From positions 7,327 through 71,326 of the IMG/VR virus record IMGVR_UViG_3300009506_000017: 64,000 bases of DNA; one strand, written 5' to 3'. This document shows, in pieces, positions 17 through 24,989 of this stretch; the stretch's first letter is position 1, and every line of letters begins with the position of its first letter. The DNA is from a virus. A program made the position numbers and the translations under genes. The notes beneath the pieces were generated by a model. It did not search any database. It saw only the letters and a list, made by a program, of their open reading frames with translations, and was not told the origin of the DNA.

Positions 17-358
17 ATGGCCCAGTGCATCAGCCCGGTGCCCGACCTCAATGGTGGGGCCTGCAACTTCCCCATCGCAGAAGATGGTGTTGCTGCGGAT
101 CCCGATGGTGGCATCGCGTGCGAGACCTACCTGCCTGGCGGCAAGCTGCGGATCGGCATCGGGCTCAAGGGCTTCGAGGTCCGCGGTGGATGCGCCGACG
201 AGCTCGCCGAGATGGTGGTGGGCAAGAGCTTTGCCGAGATCGCGGCCAAATACCCCGGGTTGGTCAATCCGGGCGGCCAGGTGTACGGACCGCAACAGAG
301 CGGTGCCAGCATGTGCATGCCCGTGGGTTCGCTCGGAGATCCCGGCGTATCCCGCTGA
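17..358 (+). CDS. Hypothetical virion-module protein (Gly/Cys-rich)
   Basis: GAGGAG RBS before ATG 17; the ORF may extend upstream of the window. Confidence 0.6.
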   Translation: MAQCISPVPDLNGGACNFPIAEDGVAADPDGGIACETYLPGGKLRIGIGLKGFEVRGGCADELAEMVVGKSFAEIAAKYPGLVNPGGQVYGPQQSGASMCMPVGSLGDPGVSR

Positions 359-466
359 GTTCCGTTCGGGGGTCTTTACCGCCTGATTTTCAATTGAGTG
401 TCACACCAGAGAGCCCCCGATCGGAACCGCGGTTCTGGTCGGGGGCTCATGCGCAAAGAGGAACAC

Positions 467-1096
467 ATGGACTGGAAAACCCTTGGCGTCGATCTCAGAA
501 GCATCGCGATGCTCAACCCGCGCCTCGCTCTGATGCTTACCCGCGGTCAGCCTCTGGCTCCCCGTGCCTACAACATCCGGATCCAATTCGACCAGGGAAC
601 GTCAGGCGAGACCATCGACAGCGAGATGGACGAACGCCTCTACCAGGACGTGTGGATCCAGAACCTCGCCTACACAGTTCGCCGCCCAAACGCGAACGAG
701 GGTGTAATCGATCGTGCCCAGGTCGACGAGTACACCAAGCTCAACCCATATGTGGACGTCGAAATGCGCGTCGCGGGAACGGAGAAGTATGAGCTGACCA
801 ACTCGCTCACTCCGCTCGAGAACATCGCGCAGAGTCGCAACGTCCGCGACTACCTGAACAAGGCATGGACGCTCGGGGTCGATCAGAATCTGAAGGTCCG
901 TGGAGTGCTCCAGAGAAACCTCGCAGAGGACGAGCTCCCGTACCTCGTCATCCTGACGTTGACCGTCATCGAGGTCAGCGGATGCAACCTGCACACCATC
1001 GCGTATGCAGACGCTGTCTGCGCCTTGAAGACTATGGGGATCTACCCCTCGTTCAAAGACGTAGAGCTGAACATTCCGAAGTCCAGGATGATGTGA
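467..1096 (+). CDS. Putative minor capsid / penton-like beta protein
   Basis: GAGGAA RBS before ATG 467; alternating beta-strand pattern; start of structural block. Fold is inferred. Confidence 0.5.
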   Translation: MDWKTLGVDLRSIAMLNPRLALMLTRGQPLAPRAYNIRIQFDQGTSGETIDSEMDERLYQDVWIQNLAYTVRRPNANEGVIDRAQVDEYTKLNPYVDVEMRVAGTEKYELTNSLTPLENIAQSRNVRDYLNKAWTLGVDQNLKVRGVLQRNLAEDELPYLVILTLTVIEVSGCNLHTIAYADAVCALKTMGIYPSFKDVELNIPKSRMM

Positions 1097-1097
1097 G

Positions 1098-23800: not shown

Positions 23801-24421
23801 TCGCACAAGAACCCAGCCGGAATCCCGAAGGCTGTGGAGCGGTACTACAACGATGTCAAAGCCGGCAACCCCGGGTACAGCGACTCGCAGGCATGGGCGA
23901 CCGCATGGAGCATCTACTGCAAGCACAAGAGGCCAGGCAGTCCCCACTGTCGACGTCCGAGCGAAACGTACATGGCCAACCCCAAGCGTAGGAGCACGAA
24001 GAAAGTCAAGCGTGCACGCAAGAACCCCACCAAGGCATCGGTGGCAAAGGTTCAACTGAAGCTGCTCGAGTACAACGAGGATCTGGTGCCGGCGCGCCAG
24101 CGCCATGTGACGACGAAGACCCTCGGTCGAGCAGACAGCTGGATCCGGATGGTGTCACGCACGATGGATCCGAATGACATGTGGAAGGCCGAGTACGTGG
24201 TGTACTTCACGGACGGAAACAGCTTCGGTGGTCGGTACGACATCTACGGCCGTATGACCAAGAACCCTCCCATTGCTCGTCGGATCAAGCAATCGTGGAC
24301 ATACTCGTCGGGGCGCTTGCGACCGAAGCCGAAGCAGTATGACGCGATGCTCAAGGCGTACGTTGGAGAGCGCAAGATGGCCATCTTCGGTCGCATGCTC
24401 GACAACTACGCGTTGAAGTGA
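20855..24421 (+). CDS. 1188-aa polyvalent protein: GNAT + ComM/Mg-chelatase-like AAA+ + DUF6582-like + several small basic domains
   Basis: VYVVPTHRRSGIASKLL (GNAT motif A); GPGASGKT, RPFRAPHYTVS, GEVSLATFGVLFLDE (YifB/ComM); FALPERQDLPIHDAKHAKNA; 14 NP dipeptides. Confidence 0.8.
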   Translation: MGLEVYLLDKGSVPGIGAEVGRRVRNGIARYVSPHGSYRYVLYRNGNSIAALQAVSSDGVNATIANVYVVPTHRRSGIASKLLARARRDFVSVVHAERGNLSAEGRAWSEHDLHGGADIPSPNPYFKPLQQQTSEEELARGLAQEAVNRAVPPHKIPDTVQLLILPERIQTSYSPVFGYNMPTHMLVTAVLIDPSTGDPVYAIGSPDPSIFMLRMGYTRHPGNVWTTRKYMVQTLRYRYQPWLNEMKPGNLSAARERYSKLFHKSYGAHVGEMRIVEVRSGPRKDETVPLWRSEVDATIRYATQEIPCSTPSKVAMWIRKTNDAWGQWQPQAIKMLSPRLRSHFKDIVHKRLDELVLDGVLERKGKCYYQAGAIMKRRTAKPNPKITHAGTMVDLVKQIAKQPGARVLLVGPGASGKTAIARRIAQELPKLTRAECEELNKIYSQTGLGPLCGRPFRAPHYTVSTAGLLGTAKRPSGEVSLATFGVLFLDEVQEFRRKAVEDVNKALRAKIVAPYGWPANPRVVIYSATVPPNASPQEMARWWGRVHAAVGKVDHTIKLDWPMTETVRFGQMMPLENPVTEKPFRVWMEDGKRFRRYPETFDSEKESLAAARAFMRAHKPQGHQARVSIQEGAEELWRWEARFYRPKGHNAYEWKWMSQKKPPKIDWRMESPGKGRIVIRTRAKGARKNPYACPAKPPVRGELTAAKRRRIPKNMFALPERQDLPIHDAKHAKNANSRLTQMLKRGTVTDSEYRKAYRNIMDAYACFGLETRTKPAIPVSGVAKSNPAAYGLLNKDESLGAKLLEYHGGQNTALYAVGSSLYAGNEPPKELYEDAIGELDSLRTHPGMKPHRTYLTKLIGRLRRRAKRAAKSNPNCNAVVCVGRRNPTTSQAPFCPSCKCNPGKKTWAQAKSDILDYLEQEGWKVSDRRLKTPHATDPYDDFTLWFRKQAIWLGKGKTIRGAHTTWLDPRDMTPQQFVMAVTSHKNPAGIPKAVERYYNDVKAGNPGYSDSQAWATAWSIYCKHKRPGSPHCRRPSETYMANPKRRSTKKVKRARKNPTKASVAKVQLKLLEYNEDLVPARQRHVTTKTLGRADSWIRMVSRTMDPNDMWKAEYVVYFTDGNSFGGRYDIYGRMTKNPPIARRIKQSWTYSSGRLRPKPKQYDAMLKAYVGERKMAIFGRMLDNYALK

Positions 24422-24428
24422 GGACCCA

Positions 24429-24989
24429 ATGCCTGACCCGATGCTCCCACGGATCGATCCAGCCGTGTATCGGCTGGTCGAGTGGTCGCTATGCCAGGTC
24501 GCGTACGTTACGGCCAAAGAACTGATGCGCGTGAGGCCGGAGACGGACATGACCGACGCCTACCAGGAGGGATGGGAACTCGCGCAAGCCCTGAATGAAA
24601 GTGGGCGCCCCCTCATCCCTGGGCAGGAACCGCAGACGGGGGTCGCCGCACCACCCGAGGTTCAGGGAGATGACCTTGTGCATTGGCCGACCCTCGTGTG
24701 CAGCCTCAACAGCTATGCGCAGCTCGAGCCGCTGGAGCGAGCCGCAGTTCGCAGCGCCATTTCCAAGGGAGCAGCGTTGTGGGAGCTCGGCATCGGGGGT
24801 TCGGCGGTGCGCACCGGTGGAAGGTTCGAACCGGCCGCCTTGTGTGATCCAAAGGCGGTCAACGATCCGGACTACATTCCGGAGCCACCATGTGTGCCGA
24901 AGGATGTTGCTACAGCGGCAGGTGTCGCAGCGGCAAGCTTCCTTGGATTCGCCGGGCTCGCTCTGCTCGTGAGGCTGCTGAGAGGTTAG
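24429..24989 (+). CDS. Tail-anchored membrane protein
   Basis: C-terminal TM AAGVAAASFLGFAGLALLVRLLRG. Confidence 0.65.
   Translation: MPDPMLPRIDPAVYRLVEWSLCQVAYVTAKELMRVRPETDMTDAYQEGWELAQALNESGRPLIPGQEPQTGVAAPPEVQGDDLVHWPTLVCSLNSYAQLEPLERAAVRSAISKGAALWELGIGGSAVRTGGRFEPAALCDPKAVNDPDYIPEPPCVPKDVATAAGVAAASFLGFAGLALLVRLLRG

Follow-up and report, generated by a model that had tools for sequence, protein, structure and literature searches.

A 72-kb bacterial virus genome without recognizable tail or packaging-motor genes probably encodes a tailless, membrane-containing particle

Which kind of particle is built by a virus that devotes more than half of its genome to virion-type genes, many of them for membrane-anchored proteins, while no gene of a tail and no known packaging motor can be recognized in it? 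This question is raised by the IMG/VR record IMGVR_UViG_3300009506_000017 (72,434 bp). A stretch of 64,000 nucleotides of this record (bases 7327-71326; hereafter the window) had been interpreted, from its letters alone, as part of an unusually large tailless virus of the double-jelly-roll (DJR) lineage. Our analysis covers the whole record including both flanks; coordinates without a prefix refer to the window. The record belongs to an uncultured bacterial virus of an undescribed lineage, whose complete or near-complete genomes range from 72 to 120 kb; a literature search found no paper describing this lineage. We consider it probable that the virus forms a particle without a tail, in which a jelly-roll shell covers a membrane with anchored proteins. 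The large tailless membrane virus of the original prediction is thus supported as the most likely reading, by a pair of jelly-roll proteins and by the anchored proteins. Jelly-roll capsid proteins are thereby supported; the DJR fold itself is unproven, however, and a protein pair like that of P23-77 fits better.

Alignment-based scans of IMG/VR led to six relatives. Among the genomes compared here are G001 (72,723 bp, 96% complete), G406 (73,439 bp, 100%) and G405 (119,895 bp, 100%, with a 127-bp terminal repeat); L005 is an 18-kb contig of the Joint Genome Institute (JGI), and G000 denotes the present record. Family members also occur on contigs of 83.6, 89, 134, 167 and 214 kb. Single-protein scans of IMG/VR with h111 and h10, two proteins discussed below, gave no match, and neither did a megablast of 25 kb or a tblastn of the same two proteins against 50,697 phage records.

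The best candidates for the shell proteins are encoded by two neighbouring genes, h10 and h11, and predicted structures of both products fold confidently as jelly rolls. The gene h10 encodes 415 residues and lies at bases 6437-7684 of the contig (L001:611-1858); it starts 889 bp before the window, which includes its C-terminal 119 codons (1-358, + strand), seen there as an ORF at 17-358. At 50% identity, 65 representatives of its family occur among 1.84 billion proteins, with a length of 400-450 residues in nearly every case. In each of the seven independent contexts seen, h10 is directly followed by h11 (449-1096, +), which encodes a small single jelly-roll capsid candidate of 215 residues, belongs to a family of 35 clusters and has the highest codon score in the genome. 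The AlphaFold2 model of h10, computed with the family alignment, reaches a predicted local distance difference test (pLDDT) of 85.4 and a predicted template modelling score of 0.85, and contains about 17 strands. In Foldseek searches of the PDB, its top matches are SPV1 (E-value 1.5e-3) and PRD1 P3; the structural-match values of h10 lie under the tool's own confidence line of 8. Structure prediction of positions 467-1096 had been proposed as a check for a capsid protein, and the model of h11 is indeed a confident single jelly roll (pLDDT 84.5) with N-terminal helices. Its best structural match by two methods is the capsid protein of SPV1, followed by PHM (7.2), HHIV-2 (7.1), D13 (7.0), STIV (6.9), P23-77 VP16-VP17 (6.4), HCIV-1 (6.2) and SH1 (5.6). 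A profile-profile comparison of h10 with h11 reveals no relation, and the profile of the h10 family yields only noise against the sequences of the PDB. The h10 homolog match in G001 and G003 was reported with one in-frame TGA.

If h10 were a hexon protein with two tandem barrels and h11 the penton, the virus would be a canonical DJR virus of the PRD1/PM2/STIV type (Bamfordvirae), in which an FtsK/A32 ATPase fills a membrane-lined procapsid. This alternative draws on the match to PRD1 P3, which covers h10 in full length (374-388 columns, E-values of 0.017-0.05), on the tectivirus capsid proteins of Wip1 and GC1 among the BFVD matches of h10, and on its VIA matches to the capsid proteins D13, P3 and those of PBCV-1, SGIV, Faustovirus, STIV and FLiP. 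In addition, each half of the h10 model has a helix behind its presumed F strand according to DSSP, and the matches of h11 include the STIV vertex protein and D13. Yet single-barrel targets align across residues 15-357 of h10, so that its topology resembles a single core barrel holding an inserted beta domain more than a tandem of two barrels. Neither the complete genome nor any of three complete relatives encodes an FtsK, an A32 or a conserved P-loop protein. We therefore consider a canonical DJR virus unlikely. The predicted virion shares with PRD1 and PR772 (Tectiviridae) and other DJR viruses a tailless, membrane-lined design, as far as we can infer it here, and the logic of vertex spikes, and P3 and D13 are among the best matches of h10. 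In contrast to PRD1, the present genome encodes neither an A32/FtsK ATPase nor a protein-primed polymerase, has a circular map instead of a linear genome with terminal proteins, and is about five times larger, and the DJR fold of h10 is not established.

P23-77 and its relatives, including SSIP-1, are known to combine a small single-barrel protein with an adjoining larger one that has a second beta domain (PMC4958249, PMC6356626). In our comparison, a pair of a small and a large capsid protein of this kind appears to fit h11 and h10 better than a double jelly roll. The likeness to P23-77, SH1, HHIV-2 and HCIV-1 (Halopanivirales, Helvetiavirae) would include an internal membrane. However, these viruses possess a conserved FtsK/HerA-type ATPase next to the capsid genes, whereas the gene upstream of h10 encodes a basic membrane protein; moreover, their genomes measure only 17-31 kb, and the gene order found here is large before small.

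The weight of any missing gene depends on the completeness of the record, which is tagged as linear and has a CheckV completeness of 80%. Both contig ends sit within a tandem array of LamG paralogs with the motif 'FWPMDEGxG'. An alignment with four paralogs reveals that the 3'-open last open reading frame (ORF) abuts the 5'-open first ORF exactly: joining the end to the start with an overlap of 2 nt produces a single uninterrupted LamG ORF of 222 residues, which has the length of a paralog and aligns to the others without gaps, while joins with an overlap of 0 or 1 nt run into stops. In G001, the two genes that flank this break, h115 and the gene of an SLT transglycosylase, adjoin each other. 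On the strength of this in-frame junction and of the gene order in G001, we treat the genome as complete, circular or circularly permuted, with nothing missing just outside. For the same reasons, we rejected the possibility that about 20% of the genome is absent from the contig. The capsid and packaging ATPase genes had been expected just beyond the window; a capsid candidate, h10, indeed begins there, but the genome closes without an FtsK/A32 ATPase.

Within this closed genome, the hallmarks of tailed phages are missing. Scans with PHROGs and Pfam covered every ORF above 300 residues and most above 180, including the largest ORFs in the flanks, and identified no terminase, portal, HK97 capsid, tail tube, sheath or tape-measure protein in the 72.4-kb record. 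What had been reported for the window (no terminase, portal, HK97 capsid or tape measure) hence applies to the ORFs scanned in the entire record, and the flanks, where such genes would have spoken for a tailed phage, yielded none. Six-frame searches with Terminase_6N, Phage_portal, Phage_capsid, FtsK_SpoIIIE and Pox_A32 produced no matches in six records, i.e. the present one and five relatives, of which G001, G406 and G405 are 96-100% complete; the control genomes were positive. A six-frame search with TerL_ATPase had no matches in four records (G000-G003).

One may object that the virus is a tailed phage (Caudoviricetes) whose hallmark genes are too divergent for profiles, and whose anchored proteins serve lysis, exclusion or host takeover. 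The N-termini of its spike-like proteins do match PHROGs annotated as tail, neck or tail-fibre proteins; LamG, SLT and polyvalent proteins are common among tailed phages; the label Uroviricota is given in IMG/VR and to the Atlas neighbours; and a circularly permuted map is typical of headful packaging. This objection is difficult to reconcile with the negative searches of ORFs and records described above, with the absence of a large P-loop protein outside the replication genes and the polyvalent protein, and with the absence of any tape-measure-like protein. Furthermore, the best-conserved, always adjacent and most codon-biased genes encode jelly rolls instead of HK97-like proteins. A tailed phage is accordingly improbable in our estimation.

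How, then, would the DNA enter a tailless shell? A six-frame Walker A scan located true P-loops in two places only, the AAA_25 replication helicase and the AAA+ domain of the polyvalent protein, and a looser scan of the called genes adds an SNF2 helicase. There is no conserved P-loop protein in the virion module and no ATPase of the FtsK/A32 type in the genome, flanks included, contrary to what the original prediction had led us to look for; likewise, no P-loop ORF is present inside the conserved module of G405 or G406. The AAA_25 helicase and the AAA+ domain of the polyvalent protein were considered as packaging motors and rejected, as neither is conserved together with the module in G001, G405 and G406.

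In place of an ATPase, the capsid genes are accompanied by h9 (L003:4847-6328, off-window), just upstream of h10. Its N-terminal region of 100-250 residues is nearly devoid of acidic residues, contains as many as 16 Lys/Arg per 40 residues and is followed by two or three transmembrane segments. The protein is conserved in three relatives, and the same design is found in G001 and L005. A probable role of h9 is to condense the DNA or to link it to the membrane. In the present genome, a tandem repeat of about 75 residues ('KxQACxLxKATRAQGRTPSAK') lies within its basic region, and its start codon is uncertain, with a long form of 493 and a short form of 343 residues.

A precedent for such a design is SPV1 (Portogloboviridae), in which a shell covers a membrane, sub-capsomer and membrane proteins are numerous, no packaging ATPase has been reported, and the genome is condensed by a basic protein, VP1, which wraps it inside the membrane (PMC8459092). 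In structure, h11 matches SPV1 best, and SPV1 also heads the Foldseek matches of h10. A portoglobovirus-like design in a bacterium, i.e. a single-jelly-roll shell with a membrane around a nucleoprotein core and no motor, would account for the lack of an ATPase and for the conserved membrane protein h9, which is strongly basic and encoded beside the capsid genes. On the other hand, the match exceeds those of unrelated jelly rolls by a Z of about 1 only, h10 is more than twice the size of VP4 whereas both capsid proteins of SPV1 are small single barrels, and no homolog of SPV1 VP1 was seen, although none was looked for; nor is there any sign here of a VP1-like filament or of A-form DNA. Besides, SPV1 is a 20-kb virus of hyperthermophilic archaea, while the present virus carries peptidoglycan enzymes, pointing to a bacterial host. 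The probability of a true SPV1-type virus appears low to us, and we return to the reading of a P23-77-like pair over a membrane.

The case for this membrane comes from the proteins encoded around the capsid genes. The virion block extends over about 41.5 kb and is composed of window positions 55,887-64,000, the off-window ends and window positions 1-24,989; it is not split across the window ends, as had been thought, but wraps around the circular map. A single C-terminal transmembrane helix with a short basic tail is present in 15 of 53 block proteins, compared with 2 of 56 proteins elsewhere (Fisher p = 4e-4), as counted by a simple hydropathy rule that includes h116, which looks like a beta strand rather than a transmembrane helix, and misses h113 and the SLT protein h7, whose anchors are rich in Gly. 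Hence, the enrichment in membrane anchors noted earlier for about 25 kb plus 7 kb is confirmed, but the extent of the block had been underestimated. Comparisons by tblastn with L005, G001, G405 and G406 reveal one syntenic core, in the order h110, h111, h114, h115, SLT, h8, h9, h10, h11, g12 and the LysM-like pair, followed by three paralogs of about 160 residues, the spike-like proteins, a holin-like pair, an M15 peptidase, anchored proteins, a GP88 protein, h32 and h42. The replication genes are not common to the relatives: G001 possesses DnaB and an initiator, and the present genome an AAA_25 protein, an SNF2 helicase and a topoisomerase-like protein.

A block of this composition could also be sought in a plasmid-like or vesicle-forming mobile element that is not a virus, with membrane proteins and cell-wall enzymes serving transfer. 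The numerous membrane proteins, the SLT domain (VirB1-like), the polyvalent protein, RadC, a serine recombinase and the lack of a packaging motor would be at home in such an element. But no P-loop protein of the VirB4, VirD4/TraG or relaxase type is present, and two conserved capsid-like jelly-roll proteins, the arrays of spikes and LamG proteins, a lysis-type cassette and a 120-kb relative with terminal repeats would remain unaccounted for; nor was the family found integrated in 400 Planctomycetota genomes. We regard this explanation as very improbable.

Several proteins of the block can be related to the cell wall. The SLT transglycosylase h7, with a C-terminal anchor, is encoded off-window (L003:3027-4397; E-value 1.8e-22). 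In PRD1, P7 is likewise a membrane-anchored lytic transglycosylase. The tail-anchored proteins h16 and h17 (3559-5505, +) are conserved in the relatives and resemble LysM proteins at their N-termini: the genes at 3559-4713 and 4720-5505 match PHROG 380 weakly (E-values of 1e-5 and 1e-4), so the earlier assignment to LysM finds some backing there, whereas the Pfam LysM matches are below the cut-off. The genes h23 and h24 encode small, holin-like membrane proteins with three predicted transmembrane segments and precede the M15 peptidase h25 (together 9869-10946, +). The latter (10374-10946) has a C-terminal anchor, matches a PHROG endolysin (E-value 1.6e-22) as well as Peptidase_M15_4 and VanY in Pfam, and is 64% identical in G405.

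The protein h114 (60385-61755, +) consists of a transglutaminase-like N-terminal domain and three transmembrane segments. Among the module proteins, none is better conserved between G000 and G001 (48.5% identity over the first 204 residues). The transglutaminase announced in the original prediction is real at the family level: the family has 43 clusters, 8 out of 41 members match Transglut_core (best E-value 4e-5), and Cys101, His135 and Asp150 are invariant; h114 itself has no match in Pfam.

Proteins with a possible role in host binding form two sets. The spikes noted before correspond to three spike-like paralogs at 6955-8451, 8477-9838 and 18274-20193, which possess a common N-terminal segment, which matches phrog_4577 (E-value 2e-8). 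The first two, h21 and h22 (6955-9838, +), are 30% identical to each other and weakly match the beta-helix families Pectinesterase and DUF1565; the third, h39, is followed by h40 with 221 residues (18274-20855, +). The other set lies in the region between h115/h116 and the SLT gene, which is the hypervariable part of the module and is occupied by the LamG array in the present genome, by about 1 kb in G001 and by 17 kb in G405. The array comprises at least six tandem paralogs of 219-235 residues with 23-43% identity (window 63971-64000 onward and L003:1-2286; LamG_3 match), each of which ends in an 'FWPMDEGxG' segment resembling the first strand of the next LamG domain.

The remaining genes of the block are all on the + strand. 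It begins with the small proteins h108-h110, followed by h111 (55887-58780); G405 has conserved counterparts of both h110 and h111, and G001 has one of h111. A Gln-rich coiled-coil protein of 586 residues, h111 may act as a scaffold or size-determining protein; it has no family match, its ESM Atlas model is poor and the look-up was uninformative. The tail-anchored h112 and h113 (58764-60394) come next, and downstream of h114 lie the conserved h115 (257 residues), h116, h117 and h118, the first of the LamG paralogs, which is truncated by the window end (61752-64000). On the other side of the capsid genes, g12/h13 (1098-2027), conserved in L005, G001, G405 and G406, encodes 309 residues with an acidic, Gly-rich C-terminus; it has no family match in PHROGs or Pfam, and its ESM Atlas model is poor. 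After the tail-anchored membrane proteins h14 and h15 (2027-3555), each with a C-terminal transmembrane helix and basic tail, and the LysM-like pair, there are the three paralogs h18, h19 and h20 (5507-6985) of about 160 residues with a common N-terminal helix. They are possible cement or decoration proteins, with a weak match to Phage_cement_2 (E-value 8e-4) below the cut-off.

Beyond the M15 peptidase, the tail-anchored h26, h27, h29, h30, h31 and h34 are interleaved with h28 and h32 (10943-16779); h28 (12108-13442) is a member of the GP88 family (Pfam E-value 1.1e-15), and h32 is small and conserved. The next pair is h36 and the RadC/JAB protein h37 (16776-18208; RadC E-value 2.5e-28). No PHROG or Pfam match exists for h36, and phmmer searches of h40, h36 and h115 against the PDB produced noise. 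The polyvalent protein h41 (20855-24421; 1188 residues) combines GNAT families with an AAA+ domain like that of Mg-chelatase/ComM (Pfam Mg_chelatase E-value 2e-24); it probably enters the particle and is delivered together with the DNA. The block closes with h42 (24429-24989), which is tail-anchored and conserved in G001 and G405.

Across the genome, the GC content is 58-62%, no tRNA gene was found, and all genes except a few short ones, as called with a codon log-odds model, are on the + strand. Only two genes on the minus strand score well, one at each border of the virion block (24986-25369 and 55083-55709); the latter is conserved in G001 with 39% identity and is divergently placed there too. 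Outside the block, a serine recombinase gene at 49893-50612 (Pfam Resolvase E-value 2.4e-31) underlies a longer ORF in the wrong frame (49607-50599) and suggests integration or dimer resolution; ORF 3 of the phage SSIP-1 is similar to it (E-value 2.8e-9). The region 30591-32058, listed as one protein of 436 residues, probably represents two genes (30591-31163 and 31156-32058), the second of which matches PHROG 6247, 'DNA topoisomerase' (E-value 1e-112), and has no Pfam match. The ORFs at 38046-39145 have a poor coding score.

Because the virus carries peptidoglycan enzymes, a bacterial host is proposed: the SLT domain, the M15 peptidase and the LysM-like domains point to a bacterium with a peptidoglycan wall. 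A 2.8-kb contig in a Planctomycetales metagenome-assembled genome (CAYOGX010000900.1), which contains only homologs of h10 and h11 (46% identity), is the sole and weak hint at a particular host; none of 400 other Planctomycetota genomes has a member of the h10/h11 family.

The nearest cultured analogue is SSIP-1, a tailless membrane phage. Both viruses share a bacterial host, a circular double-stranded DNA (dsDNA) genome that is large for a tailless phage, and a giant structural protein. According to the same hydropathy rule and a reading of the C-termini, at least nine proteins of the SSIP-1 structural block end in a Gly/Ala-rich C-terminal anchor, comparable to the 15 of 53 described above. 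In addition, the family profile of h114 weakly matches gp34, a transglutaminase-like, anchored structural protein of SSIP-1, across the Cys-His-Asp core (15.6 bits, E-value 1.3e-4 within the SSIP-1 ORF set). The two also differ: with family profiles, nothing significant relates the capsid-region proteins of SSIP-1 to h10 and h11, the P-loop structural protein gp40 has no counterpart in the present lineage, the replication genes are different, and genomes of 72-120 kb compare with 44 kb in SSIP-1. The best BFVD match of h10 is I1ZBH9, a viral protein of 211 residues (probability 0.99, E-value 2e-3, TM-score 0.42 by target); gp46 and ORF 35 of SSIP-1 have 211 residues each.

Taken together, we propose a tailless and perhaps icosahedral shell that would be formed by two adjacent jelly-roll proteins, the 215-residue single barrel h11 and the 415-residue h10 with its core barrel and added beta domain. 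It would enclose a lipid membrane bearing about 15 tail-anchored proteins, among them proteins that may bind the cell wall (LysM-like) or cut it (SLT, M15 peptidase) and a transglutaminase-like multi-pass protein; the cell-wall enzymes would face outward for entry or exit. Spike-like paralogs with a common N-terminal adaptor and the hypervariable LamG array may bind the host. Adjoining the capsid genes, h9 would condense the DNA or tether it to the membrane, so that packaging might proceed by DNA condensation without a dedicated motor, and the polyvalent protein and RadC would probably be packaged cargo.

What speaks against this proposal should be stated as well. Gene content, folds, conservation, circular closure and absences are observations, whereas the membrane, the geometry of the shell, the roles of the individual proteins and the mode of packaging are predictions from them. 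By sequence, the capsid candidates cannot be related to any known capsid protein, those of SSIP-1 included. The PHROG matched by the spike N-termini is annotated as 'tail protein'. To our knowledge, every virus with vertical jelly-roll capsids and such a dsDNA genome has a packaging ATPase; since none was seen here, either the packaging model is new or the reading is wrong. The absences rest on the sensitivity of hidden Markov models, and h111, h113, h116, h28 and g12 were not folded.

What could this lineage mean for the biology of membrane-containing viruses? As far as we know, the cultured tailless bacterial viruses of this kind have genomes of 9-44 kb, and all seem to depend on a P-loop ATPase for packaging. 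The present lineage, with a complete genome of 72.4 kb and complete relatives of 73 and 120 kb, carries the gene signature of a tailless membrane particle without either of the known packaging motors. If this signature is read correctly, the size range of jelly-roll, membrane-lined phages grows several-fold. The profiles of h10 and h11 provide a family pair for spotting such viruses in metagenomes, where they are currently classified among the tailed phages, and the system is relevant to how single- and double-jelly-roll capsids are linked in evolution. It also makes the motor-less filling of a large dsDNA capsid directly testable. A bolder version of the model, which we put forward tentatively and consider rather unlikely, is that bacterial viruses of 72-120 kb assemble a jelly-roll shell and a membrane around DNA pre-condensed by the protamine-like h9, without either known motor. 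If true, this would be a bacterial counterpart of the strategy of the archaeal virus SPV1 and a third way to fill a large icosahedral dsDNA capsid.

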